Made by a program: the position numbers and the translations under genes
The notes under the pieces: generated by a model
Databases searched by the model: none
What the model was told of the DNA's origin: nothing
Seen by the model: the letters and a program-made list of their open reading frames with translations, nothing else
Shown: one piece after another, positions 1 to 6,119 of the stretch
Numbering within the stretch: position 1 is the stretch's first letter
How the letters are laid out: every line of letters begins with the position of its first letter
From: an uncultured delta proteobacterium
GTDB taxonomy: Bacteria; Desulfobacterota; Syntrophia; Syntrophales; UBA8958
Assembly (NCBI GenBank): GCA_903885795.1
Contig: CAISJV010000027.1
Span: forward strand, 22,943-86,942
Direction of reading: 5' to 3'
Length of the DNA stretch: 64,000 nt

Positions 1-702
1 ATGCACCTGGCTTCTACTGAACGTTTCGACGATGAGATCGACCCCGCTATTCTCCAATATGAGGGGGCGACCTATTTTGCAAACATCCTGCTTCCCTATT
101 CTCCCCTCGTAAACAAGTTGCTCGGACGGGTTGGATCTTCAGGGATGACCTTTAAATACATCGCACCGGATCATGGACCTGTCTGGCGCAAGGATATCGG
201 GGGAATTATCGGTAAATACGGCGAATGGTCGGCTCAAAAACAGACCCGGAAGGCCATCGTTGTTTACGGTACCATGTGGCACAGCACGGAACATATGGCC
301 AGGGCGATCAGTGAAGGACTTGCGAACGGCGGTGCGATTACCAGATGCATGTCCCTGGACGTTTTTCATCGTAGTGATGTTGCATATGAAATCCTTGATG
401 CCGGCGCCCTGGTGATCGGTTCTTCAACCCTCAACAACAACATGTTACCCCAGGTAGCCGATGTACTGACCTATTTGAAAGGTCTCCGGCCGATGAATCT
501 AATGGGAGCATCTTTCGGCTCTTACGGCTGGAGTGGCGAGGCGCCGGGACAGATTACGGACATTTTGAGGGATATGAAAGTGGAAGTGATGGCTGACCCC
601 ATCAAAGTTCAACATGTGCCCCGGGAAAATGATCTTGCCCGCTGCTATGCCCTGGGGGAGGAGATAGCATTGCAATTGAAGAGAAATAAGGAGGTTGCAT
701 GA
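1..702 (+). CDS. flavodiiron protein (FprA / rubredoxin:oxygen oxidoreductase type), C-terminal part; 5' end lies outside the window
   Basis: Frame is open from base 1. It carries a flavodoxin-like module (KAIVVYGTMWHSTEHMA, GALVIGSSTLNNNMLP, FGSYGWSGEA). Rubredoxin and rubrerythrin genes follow on the same strand. Confidence 0.8.
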   Translation: MHLASTERFDDEIDPAILQYEGATYFANILLPYSPLVNKLLGRVGSSGMTFKYIAPDHGPVWRKDIGGIIGKYGEWSAQKQTRKAIVVYGTMWHSTEHMARAISEGLANGGAITRCMSLDVFHRSDVAYEILDAGALVIGSSTLNNNMLPQVADVLTYLKGLRPMNLMGASFGSYGWSGEAPGQITDILRDMKVEVMADPIKVQHVPRENDLARCYALGEEIALQLKRNKEVA

Positions 703-1430
703 AAAAGTTGAAAAAATCGTTCATTGTAATGTCGGCATTTGTTTTTCTGATTGTTGGGGCCTTTGCTGCTCAGGCGGAGAAGTACATTCCGGAAAAGGTT
801 GTTGGGGCCGTGGCGAACTGGGGAAACGGGAAGGTATATTTCTTTAAAGGCGATCGCTATGTGCGTTATTCCGCGAAGCCGGACATGGCTGAAGATCTCA
901 TGGGAGACAGGGCTGATCCTGGCTATCCAAAAACCATCAGCAAGGAAACTTGGCCGGGGTTGAACTGGACGGATATTGACGCCGTGGTCTTTATGGGCAA
1001 CGGTAAGGTTTGTTTTTTTAAGGGAAAAGAATACATCCAGTACGACATCAATGCCGATAAGGCAGATCCGGGATACCCGAAACCTATCAATGAGCAGACC
1101 TGGCCGGGTCTGATCTGGACAGACGGTGTTGACGCGGCGGTGAACTGGGGCAATGGCAAGATCTTTTTTTTCAAAGGCAACGAATACATCCGTTATGGTA
1201 TTTCAAAGGGTCGGGCCGACTACGGCTACCCCAAACTGATTGAAGAACGTAACTGGCCAGGAATGATCTGGACAGACGGCATTGACGATGTAGTGAACTG
1301 GGGCAACGGCAAGGCCTATTTTTTCAAAGGCAATGAATATATACGCTATGATATTCAGGATGATAGGGCGGACCCTGGTTATCCAAAACCTATAAACCGG
1401 CAGACTTGGCCGGGGCTCATTAATTGGTGA
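699..1430 (+). CDS. secreted protein built from four hemopexin-like repeats
   Basis: ATGA overlap with the upstream stop. Sec signal MKKLKKSFIVMSAFVFLIVGAFAAQA/EK. Four ~47-aa repeats follow the pattern NWGNGK-x-(Y/F)FFKG-x-x-Y-(I/V)-(R/Q)Y ... ADPGYPK-x-I ... TWPGL, which matches the hemopexin/MMP blade consensus. Confidence 0.75.
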   Translation: MKKLKKSFIVMSAFVFLIVGAFAAQAEKYIPEKVVGAVANWGNGKVYFFKGDRYVRYSAKPDMAEDLMGDRADPGYPKTISKETWPGLNWTDIDAVVFMGNGKVCFFKGKEYIQYDINADKADPGYPKPINEQTWPGLIWTDGVDAAVNWGNGKIFFFKGNEYIRYGISKGRADYGYPKLIEERNWPGMIWTDGIDDVVNWGNGKAYFFKGNEYIRYDIQDDRADPGYPKPINRQTWPGLINW

Positions 1431-1457: not shown

Positions 1458-1616
1458 ATGGAAAAATACGTTTGTAATATTTGCGGTTATGTCTATGACC
1501 CTGAACAGGGTGATCCGGACGTCGGAATTTCGCCGGGGACGACATTTACGGATCTGCCCGATGACTGGATTTGTCCAATCTGCGGGTCGGGGAAGGACGA
1601 ATTCGTGATCGAATAA
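1458..1616 (+). CDS. rubredoxin (52 aa)
   Basis: Not in the supplied ORF track because it is under 60 aa. Hand translation: [52 protein letters not shown]. It has both CxxCG knuckles, and AAGGAG lies 9 nt upstream of the ATG. Confidence 0.9.
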
Positions 1617-1646: not shown

Positions 1647-2141
1647 ATGGATGAGTTGAAGAAGGTATTGTATGAGGCGTATGTGGGCGAAGCAAAAGCT
1701 GCGTTGCGCCTGAAGGTCTTCGCTGATAAGGCCAAGAAGGAAGGCTACCCGCAGATTGCTAAGCTGTTCGGTGTTATTTCCTTTTCCGAAGAGATACATG
1801 GGACCCGGGCGCTGAAACTGCTCAGAGAAGTAAAATCGACGGAAGAGAATCTCGCGGCCAGTTTTGAATCGGAACAGAAGGTTGCCGGCGTCGCTTATGA
1901 CGAATTCATAAAAATGGCGGAACGGGCAGGGAACAAGGCGGCGGTCCTTCACTTCAGCCAGAGCCGGGATGTGGAAGAGGTTCATGCCAAACTCTATAAA
2001 GAGGCGATGAACCACTTTCTGGAGGAACGGGAAACAACATACTATGTATGCAAGGTATGCGGTTTCGTATCCGATGGAGTCCTGCCTGATGAATGTCCCT
2101 TCTGCGGCGCCAAAAAGGAGCAGTTTGAACATTTCGGATAG
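1647..2141 (+). CDS. rbr: rubrerythrin
   Basis: Ferritin-like di-iron ExxH motifs (SEEIHG, VEEVHA) plus a C-terminal rubredoxin-like CKVCG...CPFCG. Confidence 0.85.
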   Translation: MDELKKVLYEAYVGEAKAALRLKVFADKAKKEGYPQIAKLFGVISFSEEIHGTRALKLLREVKSTEENLAASFESEQKVAGVAYDEFIKMAERAGNKAAVLHFSQSRDVEEVHAKLYKEAMNHFLEERETTYYVCKVCGFVSDGVLPDECPFCGAKKEQFEHFG

Positions 2142-2182: not shown

Positions 2183-2533
2183 ATGAAAGGACTGATCGTT
2201 CGCTGGCTGATTCTGACCATTGCCATTCTGTCTGCCGCCTATTTGATCCGGGGCATTTCCGTCAATAGTTTCGCAGCCGCCTTTTTTGCCGCGGCGGTTC
2301 TTGGAATTCTGAACGCCCTCTTCAGGCCTGTTCTCATCCTTCTCACCCTGCCCATAAATATCCTGACTCTGGGCCTATTCACCTTTATCATCAATGCGGT
2401 TCTTTTGAAAGTGACCGCCAGCCTCATTCCCGGATTTGATCTTCAGGGATTCTGGCCCGCCATTCTTGGCGCCCTTGTCATCAGTATCGTTAACTGGCTT
2501 CTTCACGTCTTGATCGCCGATTCCAGGAAATGA
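2183..2533 (+). CDS. DUF360 / phage-holin-4-like small membrane protein
   Basis: [25 protein letters not shown]...[30 protein letters not shown] is the typical DUF360 pattern. I prefer the ATG at 2183, which has an AG-rich RBS, over the ORF-track start at 2150. The stop overlaps the mutS ATG (ATGA). Confidence 0.7.
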
Positions 2534-5202
2534 AGATACAGGGATCTGAAACGGACAAAAGGGTGACTGGGACGAGCGATCTTACTCCGGCGATGAAGCA
2601 GTACATGGAGCTGAAGTCTCGTTATCAGGACAGTATCCTGTTTTTCAGGATGGGAGATTTCTATGAAATGTTTTTTGAGGATGCCGTCATTGCATCGAAG
2701 ATTCTCGATATTACTCTTACCTCAAGAAATAAAAATAAAGAGGGCAGCATCCCTCTTTGCGGGTTTCCCTATCATGCCGCCCCTTCCTACATTGCCAAAC
2801 TGATTGAAAAGGGACGTAAAGTCGCCATATGTGAACAGATTGAAGATCCGAAGCAGGCCACGGGTGTTGTTAAGAGAGATGTTGTCCGGGTCATAACACC
2901 GGGGCTGATGGCTGACCCCAACCATCTGGATGGCACGGAGAATCATTTCATCGCCTCCTTAACTGTTGAGAAGGGGAGCTTCGGCATGGCGTTCATGGAC
3001 ATTTCTACGGGAGAATTCCGGGTGATGGAGTTTCAAGACCGTGACATGTTCATGGCCGAAATAACGGGGCTTCGATTCCGGGAAATAATCATTTCCGATG
3101 ATTTTCAGGATCAGAGCCTGGTAAAAGCCCTTTCCCGGAACGAGCACATAGCCGTCATCAATTCATTTCCTCCGGAATACTTTGACCGGTACGAAGCCCT
3201 CCAGCGCCTGCGTAACTATTTTCCTCAGGAAAATATCGCCGAAGTCAACATTGAAAACCGTCCGGCCATCATCGGGCCGGCCGGGGCCATCCTCCGCTAT
3301 TTAGAGGAGACGCAAAAAGAACATCTTGCCCACGTCAACCATTTGGAGGAGATGGCATGGAATCATGTGCTGCTCCTCGATGAGATTGCCAAGGGAACGC
3401 TGGAATTATTCCATACAATCCAGGAGCGCAAGAAAAAGGGTTCCCTTTTTTCTGTTCTCGACGAAACGATGACAGCCATGGGAGCAAGACGGTTGCGATG
3501 GTGGCTCCACTATCCCCTTACAGAACCGGCAAGGATACAACAGCGTCTTGGTTCGGTTGGAGAGATCAAGGAGCATCATCTGCTTCGAGGGGAACTGCGC
3601 AAGATCCTGGAGAAGATTTATGATCTTGAACGTCTGAGTGGGCGTGTGGCGATGGATATGGCCCATGCGAGAGATCTGGCGGCTCTGAAGACGTCTCTGC
3701 AGGTTATCCCACAGCTTAAAGCGCTCCTCCTCCAATCTCTGACATCGCCGCTGATCCATTCTCTTCTGGCCAGAATGGATGATCTGCCGGAGACGGCGGT
3801 GCTAATTGACCGCGCCATTGTTGACGACCCTCCCCTGACAATTCGCGAAGGGGGGATAATCAAGGATGGTTTTGATGAAGAGCTTGACCAGCTTCTGTCT
3901 CTGTCCCGGAATGGCAAGCAGAACATTGCCGCCCTTGAAGAACGGGAGCGCAAGAAAACAGGAATCCAGTCCCTCAAGGTAGGATTTAATCAAATATTTG
4001 GATATTATATCGAGGTGACCAAGGCCAATACCCATCTGGTCCCCGGCGACTATATCCGCAAACAGACCCTGGTGAATGCCGAACGTTATATCAACCAGGA
4101 ATTGAAGGAATTTGAGCAGACCGTCCTTCATGCCGAGGAAAACGGCAGACAGCGGGAATATGAACTATTTCTCCGGATTCGGGGAGAAATCGCCCGGCAT
4201 ATCAGACAGATTCAAGAAACAGCGTCCTGTCTGGCCGATCTGGATGCGTTGACCTCTCTGGCTGAGGTAGCGGAAAAATACGGTTATTGCTGTCCTGTCG
4301 TCGATGATGGCGAAGTAATCGAAATCGCCGATGGCCGACATCCGGTGGTGGAGAGAATGCCGCTGGCAGAAGGATTCGTACCCAATGACACTTATCTGGA
4401 CCTGAACCAAAACCGGCTCCTCATAATCACCGGACCCAATATGGCTGGTAAATCAACCTTCATCCGTCAGGTTGCCCTGATGGTCATTATGGCTCAGATG
4501 GGTGGTTTTGTCCCCGCAAAAAAGGCCCATATCGGAGTTACTGACCGTATTTTTACCCGTATCGGCGCCGCTGATAGTCTTGCCCGGGGGCAGAGCACCT
4601 TCATGGTGGAAATGAAGGAGATGGCAAATATCCTGAATCACGCAACCTGCCGAAGTTTGATCATTCTGGACGAAGTAGGTCGGGGAACCAGTACTTTTGA
4701 CGGCCTAAGCATTGCGTGGGCGGTGGCCGAGTACATCCATGACGAAAAACATGTCGGTGCCAGGACCTTATTTGCCACCCATTATCATCAGCTGACCGAA
4801 CTCGCCCTGACCAATGAAGGGGTCAGGAATTATAACATTGCCGTCCGGGAGTGGGGAGATAGGATTATCTTTCTCCGAAAGATCATGGAAGGCGGGACAA
4901 GCAGAAGCTACGGCATTCAGGTAGCCAGATTGGCCGGTGTTCCCGATGAAGTGATCCGGCGCTCCCAGGAAATCCTTAAAAATCTGGAAAAGGGGGAACT
5001 GGATGATATGGGCGTCCCCAGGATAGCCCATGGGAAAAAAACCACCGCCAAAGGTCGGATGAAAAATCAGCTTAGCCTCTTTATGGATGACAGGGATATC
5101 ATTTTCAACGAACTGAAGGAACTCGACACAACTCGTCTCACGCCCCTCGAAGCCTTAAATCGACTTCACGAGTGGCAAAACAGGATTGGGGGCGGAGCAT
5201 GA
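2530..5202 (+). CDS. mutS: DNA mismatch repair protein MutS
   Basis: 890 aa. N-terminal [30 protein letters not shown], Walker [17 protein letters not shown] and [11 protein letters not shown] motifs. Confidence 0.95.
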
Positions 5203-6119
5203 GGAAAATTGGGATCATTTCCAGTTCTCTGATATTAGTCTTTATTTTCTCCTTCCCGGCACTGGCGGCTGACTGGTCGCCCCTGATGAAGCGACTGATA
5301 AATGATGGGTTCGAAGAAAAATCGATGCGAACACTTTTCAGTCGTAATGACGTCCAGTTTGATCCGGAACCAATGGCAACGAAAATGAATGAAATATTAC
5401 GACGCTCATCCAATAATCCGGCGTCGCTAAAGCCTTTTGTAAGCAGAGAAATTCATAAACGTTATCTTCGCTCCAGCATGATCAATCAGGCGCGCGCATA
5501 CATGATACGGAACCGCACAACTCTGGAGCGAATTAGCCGGACCTACTGTGTCCCGAAGGAGGTGGTGGTGTCCATCCTCCTGGTAGAAACCCACCTGGGG
5601 TCCAATACGGGGAAAAGAAAGGCCTTTCATGTCCTTTCCAGTATGGCCCTGAGCCCGGAGCTAGAACAGGTCAGATCTTTTGTCCCGTCGGGGACCATAC
5701 GCAACGATAATGAAGAATATGCCCGGACGCGCTGCCGGGAAAAATCGGACTGGGCCTACAATGAGCTGAAATTTCTATTGGAATATTCGCGAAGCAACAA
5801 CACGGATCCCCTTTCCATTCCCGGGTCGATCTATGGAGCGATAGGTCTTTGCCAGTTTATGCCGTCCAATGTCTTTCTCTATGGGGTCGATGCGGATGGC
5901 AACGGGCGAATCGATCTTTTTTCCGCTCCCGACGCTTTGAACAGTATTGCCAATTATCTTCACCAGAATGGTTGGGGATGCCGGATAGAAAAGAAGGACC
6001 GGCGTCAGGTAGTTATGACCTATAATCATAGTCAGGTTTATGCCAATACCGTTCTGGCCGTCGCCGACCGGTTGCAGGCAAAGAAACGGGAGCGAGGACG
6101 ATCAAACCGGTCAACGTAG
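5199..6119 (+). CDS. lytic murein transglycosylase (MltB/SLT_2-like), secreted
   Basis: Signal peptide [26 protein letters not shown]. Catalytic-region motifs [11 protein letters not shown] and [12 protein letters not shown]. The ATG at 5199 overlaps the mutS stop (ATGA). Confidence 0.7.

Follow-up and report, generated by a model that had tools for sequence, protein, structure and literature searches.

What does an exported protein of the hemopexin fold do in a cluster of genes for cytoplasmic oxygen-defence enzymes? The question is raised by the opening of a 64,000-nucleotide stretch of DNA from an uncultured Syntrophales bacterium (NCBI GenBank assembly GCA_903885795.1, contig CAISJV010000027.1, positions 22,943 to 86,942 of the forward strand), which was analysed as a whole and is referred to here as the window. 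The gene concerned (699..1430, + strand; ATG start, 243 codons plus stop) encodes a protein that we call HPX, and it stands between the genes for a flavodiiron protein (FDP) and a rubredoxin (Rd), with a rubrerythrin (Rbr) gene following. An earlier note on this DNA, made from the sequence alone and cited below as the original prediction, had recognized a secreted hemopexin-like protein and suggested for it a periplasmic role linked to oxidative stress, perhaps the binding of heme, metal or another ligand. The reading that we favour, with moderate confidence, is that HPX is a Sec-exported, non-catalytic, single-domain four-blade binding module of the periplasm or envelope that belongs to a distinct Syntrophales subfamily and is no heme carrier of the hemopexin type. 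Fold, family and annotation name were already known; the subfamily signature, the fixed locus and the pattern of presence and absence are, as far as we have found, undescribed, and they represent an incremental advance.

Fold and export signal of HPX

The four hemopexin repeats of the original prediction were borne out by Pfam, in which PF00045 (Hemopexin) matches HPX in four stretches with E=3.2e-43 (145.9 bits against a cut-off of 21.3 bits). Residues 1-33 comprise the signal peptide and a short linker, and the repeats follow as blade 1 (residues 34-91; 798..971), blade 2 (residues 92-142; 972..1124), blade 3 (residues 143-193; 1125..1277) and blade 4 (residues 194-243; 1278..1427), all on the + strand. 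No Pfam domain other than PF00045 was matched, so HPX is without a catalytic domain, and none of the NCBIfam models matches it. The hallmark motifs are present in every blade: GNGK-x-[YCF]FFKG-x-x-Y-x-[RQ]Y, D[PY]GYPK-x-I and [TN]WPG each occur four times, with minor deviations in blades 2 and 3 (C105 for Y, QY for RY, DYGYPK and NWPG). The central channel of hemopexin-like domains is lined by first strands of the form x-D-A-x and holds calcium, sodium and chloride ions; in HPX, the corresponding strands of blades 2-4 read IDAVV, VDAAV and IDDVV, and that of blade 1 reads VGAVA, with VGA in place of the usual [IV]DA, a trait of the subfamily described below.

An AlphaFold2 model based on 51 homologues (predicted local distance difference test, pLDDT, 89.8; predicted template modelling score, pTM, 0.82) is confident and has four beta-sheet blades, low confidence being restricted to the signal peptide and one loop of blade 1. 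When the model was compared with the PDB by Foldseek, the best 30 matches were all hemopexin-fold and all eukaryotic (template modelling score, TM, up to 0.83), and WD40-type propellers scored far lower (TM <=0.4). Sequence comparison with solved structures placed matrix metalloproteinase (MMP) 14 first (3.8e-18), vitronectin and MMP-2 next, then plant albumins and then serum hemopexin. The profile match is thus significant, the predicted fold is a propeller and the gene is present in the equivalent operon of relatives (see below); on these structural and genomic points, the original prediction stood.

The HPX domains of MMPs are the closest known counterparts (MMP-14, 3c7x, and MMP-2, 1rtg; phmmer E=3.8e-18; Foldseek E=1.5e-15, TM 0.82, 31% identity). 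They have in common with HPX the four blades, the G-x-Y-F-F-K-G, D-x-G-Y-P-K and W-x-G motifs, the D-A-[AV] channel-lining first strand (here in blades 2-4) and, on the reading favoured here, a non-catalytic binding role. Unlike MMPs, the window protein has no N-terminal zinc metalloprotease domain, and it is bacterial and probably periplasmic; unlike animal HPX domains, it also lacks the disulfide joining blades I and IV, having a single cysteine. This disulfide is not universal for the fold, because plant members lack disulfides as well (PMC6934871).

The blades of HPX are unusually alike. They are 60-76% identical to one another in protein, but just 65-68% in DNA; in eukaryotic HPX domains, the blade-to-blade identity of the proteins is far lower than this. 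The blade-3 residues DYGYPK/DFGYPK and NWPGM recur in both of the orthologues inspected (P0018 and P0035). The low DNA identity between blades and the recurrence of blade-specific residues rule out concerted evolution or an assembly collapse as the source of the likeness, and for the same reasons it is selection, rather than recent duplication or gene conversion, that maintains it, as expected if each blade gives an equivalent site.

One relative has a shortened orthologue. In locus L008 (6001-6579), from a metagenome-assembled genome (MAG) labelled Syntrophus aciditrophicus, blade 3 is precisely deleted: its 51 residues are gone in frame and blade 2 is joined to blade 4 in register. The product (P0020, 192 aa) has three repeats, while the cluster around its gene is otherwise intact, and it is found on two contigs in the database.

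The amino terminus of HPX carries a Sec-type signal peptide (residues 1-26; 699..776, + strand), called from sequence features and hydropathy and conserved in orthologues. It consists of an n-region, MKKLKKS, with four lysines; an h-region of 17 hydrophobic residues, F8-A24 (11-residue Kyte-Doolittle mean up to 3.1 in the hydropathy scan); and A-Q-A at positions -3/-1, with cleavage predicted between AQA and EK, that is, before E27. Neither a lipobox cysteine nor a twin-arginine motif is present in the N-terminal sequence as read. Orthologues have the same signal and the mature N-terminus E-K-Y-x-P-E, and the AlphaFold2 model sets an N-terminal helix (residues 2-24) apart from the propeller. 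The n-, h- and c-regions and the AxA site therefore agree with the clear Sec signal noted originally, and HPX is predicted to be a Sec-exported soluble protein.

A Syntrophales subfamily at a fixed locus

The order FDP-HPX-Rd-Rbr-PF04020-MutS, in which PF04020 denotes a small membrane protein, is conserved in all eight Syntrophales species genomes found (L001-L008), with HPX 71-89% identical to that of the window. The same arrangement recurs, as far as the contigs reach, in 14 of 14 metagenome contigs (L044-L057; HPX 71-91% identical; two of them are identical to genome contigs) and in the deeper relatives L032 and L037 (HPX 66% and 62% identical, respectively), so that a check of synteny supports the gene order of the original prediction. 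The closest genomes are labelled Syntrophus sp., Syntrophales bacterium or Deltaproteobacteria bacterium, which marks the source as a strict anaerobe resembling Syntrophus. Proteins named ‘hemopexin repeat-containing protein’ by NCBI in MAGs of Syntrophales and other bacteria (e.g. P0008, P0023 and P0031) are direct orthologues, with 62-72% identity, and P0031 lies in a locus of the same type (L033).

In relatives, FDP is always preceded by a monofunctional peptidoglycan glycosyltransferase of 290-300 aa (PF00912, Transgly), which in turn is preceded by a divergently transcribed LysM/NlpC-P60 gene. The window opens inside FDP, and its glycosyltransferase gene falls outside. The full cluster is thus peptidoglycan glycosyltransferase-FDP-HPX-Rd-Rbr-PF04020-MutS, a compact housekeeping cluster with HPX as a long-term resident. 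A longer order, Transgly-FDP-HPX-Rd-Rbr-PF04020-MutS-SLT_2-MlaE/F/D, is kept across MutS divergence to ~65% identity and resembles a conserved mixed-function ‘super-operon’.

Several loci depart from this arrangement. L033 (HPX 62% identical) has YkuD-Transgly-HPX-Rd-PF04020-MutS, without FDP and Rbr; L041 has Transgly-FDP-Rd-Rbr-PF04020-MutS, with Rd only 24 nt from FDP and no trace of HPX; FDP-Rd-Rbr likewise lacks HPX in L043; HPX and FDP are both missing from L042 and L114, which read Rd-Rbr-PF04020-MutS; and L113 has mutS alone. Across L033, L041, L042, L043 and L114, then, the FDP-Rd-Rbr module and HPX have not been gained or lost together, and HPX is not an obligate part of that oxygen-defence module.

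HPX proteins from loci of the operon type are monophyletic in a neighbour-joining (NJ) tree and branch in parallel with MutS. In the corresponding MutS tree, HPX-positive loci occupy several deep branches, of which L033 is the outermost, and the HPX-negative L041 is nested among HPX-positive loci. The simplest history is that HPX was ancestral at the locus and was lost at least twice, FDP and Rbr having been lost independently at least once; because these losses appear to have been independent, HPX and the FDP/Rbr enzymes would be mutually independent as well.

The subfamily is marked by an insertion of eight residues in blade 1 (S58-E65; 870..893, + strand), situated within the acidic loop SAKPDMAEDLMG. 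In alignment A1, it is present in 19 of 19 operon-type sequences (the window protein and 18 orthologues) and in none of the 32 homologues from other contexts; its region is also the sole part of the propeller that is modelled with low confidence. The signature further includes glycine in place of the blade-1 channel aspartate, a deletion of one residue between blades 1 and 2, and the specific residues P61, G69, V96, I190, D197 and W243. A second Syntrophales-like HPX lineage, without the blade-1 insertion, was seen in L034-L036 (P0041, 232 aa). Its gene lies 10 nt upstream of a 775-aa gene product that fuses cyclic nucleotide monophosphate (cNMP)-binding, acetate kinase and phosphotransacetylase-like (PTAC) parts, beside PqiA/MlaD genes.

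The G+C content at third codon positions (GC3) of the HPX gene equals that of neighbouring genes. Ratios of nonsynonymous to synonymous substitution rates (dN/dS) against orthologues are 0.07-0.20 for HPX, 0.10-0.17 for FDP, 0.09-0.11 for MutS and 0.02-0.05 for Rbr; the highest HPX value of the set, 0.20, is that of the three-repeat P0020. The HPX open reading frame (ORF) is intact in more than 20 loci. HPX is a functional gene under purifying selection, and it has been vertically inherited in one Syntrophales lineage; its recent horizontal acquisition is ruled out by the neighbour-like GC3, the MutS-parallel tree and monophyly. Repeated loss (in L041 and in the L042/L043/L114 clade) and the in-frame loss of a blade in L008 could be taken as signs of a functionless passenger gene in decay. 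Such an account is highly improbable: against it stand the intact ORFs, a dN/dS of ~0.1 over a long divergence and the conservation of the Shine-Dalgarno sequence (see below), signal peptide and subfamily loop.

Heme and the oxygen-defence genes

Is HPX, as the original prediction suggested, tied to heme or to the detoxification of O2 and H2O2? In serum hemopexin, heme is held between two propellers by two histidines. That protein (1qhu, 1qjs) shares the repeat family and the blade fold with HPX and is the weakest family match (E=2.6e-8, 15-21% identity); it has two propellers with a heme pocket at the linker and bis-histidine ligation, whereas the window protein has one propeller and no histidine. 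Orthologues have 0-3 histidines, which are not conserved. The single cysteine of HPX, C105 in blade 2, replaces the strand tyrosine or phenylalanine of the other blades and is probably buried; within the subfamily, it is conserved in 58% of sequences, M63 in 63% and M68 in 47%. No candidate residue for a heme or thiol ligand (histidine, cysteine or methionine) is conserved in the subfamily. With one propeller domain and no histidine, HPX is excluded, as judged from the protein sequence, as a heme binder of the hemopexin kind, and to that extent the suggestion of heme in the original prediction is not supported. A cysteine-peroxidase site like that of the plant protein DC25 was considered separately and ruled out as a conserved feature, given the 58% occurrence of C105.

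Genes resembling an alternative heme pathway (ALAD, two radical-SAM/SPASM genes and a NirD/L-like helix-turn-helix gene) were observed in L033 (1-2699), 5-8 kb upstream of HPX on the same strand. They are separated from HPX by polA and the YkuD gene, and their proximity is probably a coincidence.

The 3' part of the FDP gene (1..702, + strand) provides 233 codons of a class-A flavodiiron protein (Flavodoxin_1, E=3e-12) and matches NCBIfam flavorubredoxin-type models over profile positions 169-395, the C-terminal two thirds; the full-length orthologue in L003 consists of ODP and Flavodoxin_1. As had been noted, the 243-aa ORF starts in an ATGA overlap with the flavodiiron stop (699-702), in which the HPX ATG (699-701) and the FDP TGA (700-702) share two bases. 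A strong Shine-Dalgarno sequence, AAGGAGG, can be read within the FDP coding end (688..694, + strand), 4 nt before the HPX ATG. The arrangement AAGGAGG/AGGAGG-ttgc-ATG is kept in 17 of the 20 related loci checked, and different purine-rich sequences stand in place of AAGGAGG in L032, L033 and L037; L003 has no overlap, its FDP stop being 9 nt upstream of HPX. Because of the ATGA overlap and the conserved Shine-Dalgarno sequence, coupling of HPX translation to that of FDP is plausible. The start arrangement fits the translational coupling claimed in the original prediction, and the coupling itself is predicted from sequence.

Downstream on the + strand follow the genes for Rd (1458..1616, 52 aa; PF00301, E=7e-25; NCBIfam RubredRD, 101 bits against a cut-off of 90), Rbr (1647..2141, 164 aa; PF02915 and PF21349) and the PF04020 protein (2183..2533; E=8e-35). 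Rd starts 27 nt past HPX and Rbr 217 nt past the HPX stop, within the 220 nt originally stated, and the spacings from FDP through HPX, Rd and Rbr to the PF04020 gene are -4, 27, 30 and 41 nt. A promoter and terminator scan found no terminator-like site on the + strand between FDP and the PF04020 gene; its counts did not exceed those of shuffled sequence, so an internal promoter is neither supported nor refuted. The gene spacing and the absence of terminator-like sites are compatible with a single transcript, and HPX is probably co-transcribed with its cluster neighbours.

Taken this way, HPX would be the periplasmic arm of an oxygen-defence operon, co-regulated with FDP, Rd and Rbr and binding heme, metal or another stress ligand. 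Besides the overlap with its conserved Shine-Dalgarno sequence inside the FDP 3' end and the lack of a terminator-like site from FDP to PF04020, this account can draw on the FDP-HPX-Rd-Rbr order, held over MutS divergence to ~65% identity, on L033, where HPX still stands beside Rd after the loss of FDP and Rbr, and on the plant protein DC25, reported to be a peroxidase and to bind a heme analogue (PMC6934871). We nevertheless regard it as rather unlikely. In L041 and L043 the FDP-Rd-Rbr set is whole although HPX is missing, and L033 retains HPX in the absence of FDP and Rbr. HPX has no histidine, its subfamily has no conserved cysteine or methionine, and it has one domain, against the two domains and two histidines of hemopexin. 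Moreover, FDP, Rd, Rbr or Transgly genes were found near HPX in none of 23 loci from non-Syntrophales genomes and none of 55 more distant metagenome loci, so that FDP, Rd and Rbr are nearby in 0 of 78 more distant homologue loci. The enzymes of the supposed partnership work in the cytoplasm, and nearby genes encode no redox partner for the export side.

The overlap itself has counterparts within the cluster. Transgly and FDP overlap by 4 nt in the window's clade (e.g. L003 4732-4735), and so do the PF04020 stop and the start of mutS (2530-2533 in the window), an overlap kept in relatives. Because these unrelated genes are tied in by the same kind of overlap, an overlap in this cluster does not indicate shared function, and the proposed functional tie to O2/H2O2 detoxification reduces to adjacency. 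In a compact cluster to which mutS and a peptidoglycan synthase gene also belong, a 4-nt overlap says little about shared function.

A further form of the same idea seems to us unlikely indeed: that the subfamily, with its conserved acidic blade-1 loop, serves in the periplasm as the dedicated partner of the oxygen-defence genes, being co-translated with them, and either captures a periplasmic ligand that arises on O2 exposure or signals oxidative damage to the envelope. The ligand might then be a metal or a porphyrin, or else some component of the envelope that has been damaged. Were it true, a function would for the first time be assigned to a hemopexin-fold protein from bacteria, and the FDP/Rd/Rbr system of strict anaerobes would be extended beyond the cytoplasm.

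A probable envelope ligand and the HPX module of other bacteria

The original prediction held that bacterial examples of hemopexin repeats are few and scattered, a view that is now outdated. An indexed search returned 866 significant matches, nearly all with PF00045 alone or with other domains in addition, and an exhaustive search of 1.84 billion cluster representatives returned 2,966 clusters at 50% identity with E<=1e-3, 473 of them with E<=1e-30. A scan of species genomes located relatives in 31 genomes from roughly ten phyla, with representatives in Syntrophales, Bacteroidota, Chloroflexota, Verrucomicrobiota, Acidobacteriota, Nitrospira, Bacillus, Actinomycetota (Kribbella), Alpha- and Gammaproteobacteria, and a heliobacterial MAG; NCBI has a name for such proteins, as cited above. 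The Photorhabdus photopexins PpxA/PpxB and Plu1645, likewise bacterial hemopexin repeats, were historically the first prokaryotic examples; photopexins combine two HX domains with a PA-IIL lectin domain and are believed to take part in iron scavenging (PMC2422844). Going by their description, they are set apart from the window protein, a single domain whose host is a free-living or syntrophic anaerobe, whereas photopexins come from an insect pathogen. In the literature searched, we found no study of the hemopexin-like proteins of Syntrophales and, photopexins aside, no functional work on bacterial hemopexin-like proteins.

Many bacterial HPX domains are fused to other domains. Among the partners are NlpC/P60 (P0097, 6e-28), SLT (P0117), CHAP-like domains just under the cut-off (P0090 and P0091) and LpoB/TolB_N/CsgG-like domains (P0014, P0045 and about eight others). 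Further fusions have MMP-like or analogous architectures: an astacin-like metalloprotease with four HPX repeats in a Caldilineaceae genome (L010 5266-6651), a trypsin-like protease with four HPX repeats in Verrucomicrobiae (L011 5056-6624) and an HPX domain with tyrosinase and DUF7868 in Kribbella (L030 5867-8164). The HPX domains of MMPs bind substrates and partners, a role that the bacterial fusions to hydrolases, proteases and tyrosinase mirror. By this analogy, the module has the look of a general domain for binding or targeting outside the cytoplasm, as in MMPs.

For HPX itself, the ligand would most likely be an envelope macromolecule, whether a glycan, peptidoglycan or another protein as partner. 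Binding would fall to the four blades, which are nearly equivalent, and the acidic loop of blade 1 would add a contact specific to the subfamily. We favour such a ligand because of the fusion partners elsewhere, the equivalence of the blades and the cell-wall genes around the cluster.

These cell-wall genes also suggest a narrower possibility, namely that HPX is an accessory or scaffold of peptidoglycan synthesis and remodelling that, in the way of LpoB-type activators, would act with the glycosyltransferase encoded first in the cluster. Wherever an HPX-positive locus extends far enough, PF00912 Transgly lies upstream, and in L033 it adjoins HPX; LysM/NlpC-P60, YkuD and SLT_2 genes flank the cluster; and HPX domains are fused elsewhere to NlpC/P60, CHAP-like, SLT and LpoB/TolB_N-like domains. 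L041, however, has Transgly and no HPX, the domain is fused also to proteases and tyrosinase unrelated to the wall, and the adjacency of Transgly argues no more strongly than that of FDP. The proposal is tentative, and we take it to be possible but on the whole unlikely.

The plant PA2 family (LS-24, 3lp9; CP4, 3oyo; DC25, 6ix1; chickpea CAL, 3s18) shares with HPX a stand-alone propeller of ~225 aa, without disulfides and with pseudo four-fold symmetry (PMC6934871). It differs in sequence (22-24% identity) and in comprising cytosolic or storage proteins without a comparable signal peptide. HPX might, like these albumins, bind or buffer a small molecule, a polyamine or similar, through its channel or the grooves between blades. 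The common architecture, one four-blade domain of ~220 aa without a disulfide, is reflected in TM values of 0.72-0.76 to 3lp9, 3oyo, 6ix1 and 3s18 and in sequence E-values of 1e-6 to 1e-4; crystals of LS24, moreover, were obtained with spermine, and calcium, sodium and chloride ions sit in the channels of CP4 and LS24 (PMC6934871). We nonetheless doubt this account and consider it improbable: identity to the plant proteins is lower than the 29-31% to MMP HPX domains, transporter and polyamine genes are absent from the conserved cluster, and no conserved pocket residues were identified. Nor are there conserved counterpart residues in the HPX subfamily for the ligands and activities of the plant proteins (spermine, a heme analogue, Cys-dependent peroxidase and hemagglutination).

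Several points weigh against the favoured reading of HPX as an envelope-binding module. The domain fusions come from distant paralogues and not from the Syntrophales subfamily. Sampled stand-alone homologues in other phyla have no common neighbour and so indicate no partner; their neighbours, which include a methyltransferase, a phosphoenolpyruvate (PEP) mutase, a major facilitator superfamily (MFS) transporter, an acetate kinase fusion and others, are mutually unrelated. Heme-analogue binding and peroxidase activity have been reported for a single-domain plant member of the fold, DC25 (PMC6934871). The junction with FDP and the adjacency to Rd, seen even in L033, make co-expression with the oxygen-defence genes likely and a role connected with them conceivable. 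The site of HPX is assumed to be periplasmic rather than extracellular, and both trees, that of MutS and that of HPX, were built by simple NJ and carry no support values.

The Syntrophales subfamily offers a convenient entry point to the module, being small, stand-alone and strongly conserved, with a signature loop and a fixed locus. The identity of its ligand would show what the HPX module does in secreted bacterial proteases, wall hydrolases and oxidase fusions, and it might also help to explain how the animal MMP/hemopexin domain arose.

Further observations concern the bacterial homologues and the remainder of the cluster. P0003 (426 aa) and a protein of an Accumulibacter MAG (L019 4192-6723, 843 aa) have 8 or 10 repeats and probably form at least two propellers; P0003 has no obvious signal peptide at its start. 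In a class of proteins of ~400 aa (P0090-P0094, P0105 and P0114), the ORF opens at blade 1, without a visible signal peptide, and ends in a weakly CHAP-like C-terminus; these proteins may be cytoplasmic, phage-derived or mis-started. The Joint Genome Institute (JGI) names many bacterial homologues ‘matrix metalloproteinase-14 (membrane-inserted)’, ‘TolB-like protein’ or ‘type 1 glutamine amidotransferase’, which are errors of transfer from the best eukaryotic or partial-domain match.

Rfam and tRNA scans of the whole window gave no match. The last conserved member of the same-strand cluster is mutS (2530..5202, + strand; 890 aa), which is followed by a gene for an SLT_2 lytic transglycosylase (5172..6119, + strand; PF13406, E=2.5e-51). 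The longest ORF of the latter has a GTG start 31 nt ahead of the mutS stop; its homologues in L032, L041 and L007 start past mutS, and the true start in the window probably lies further downstream.

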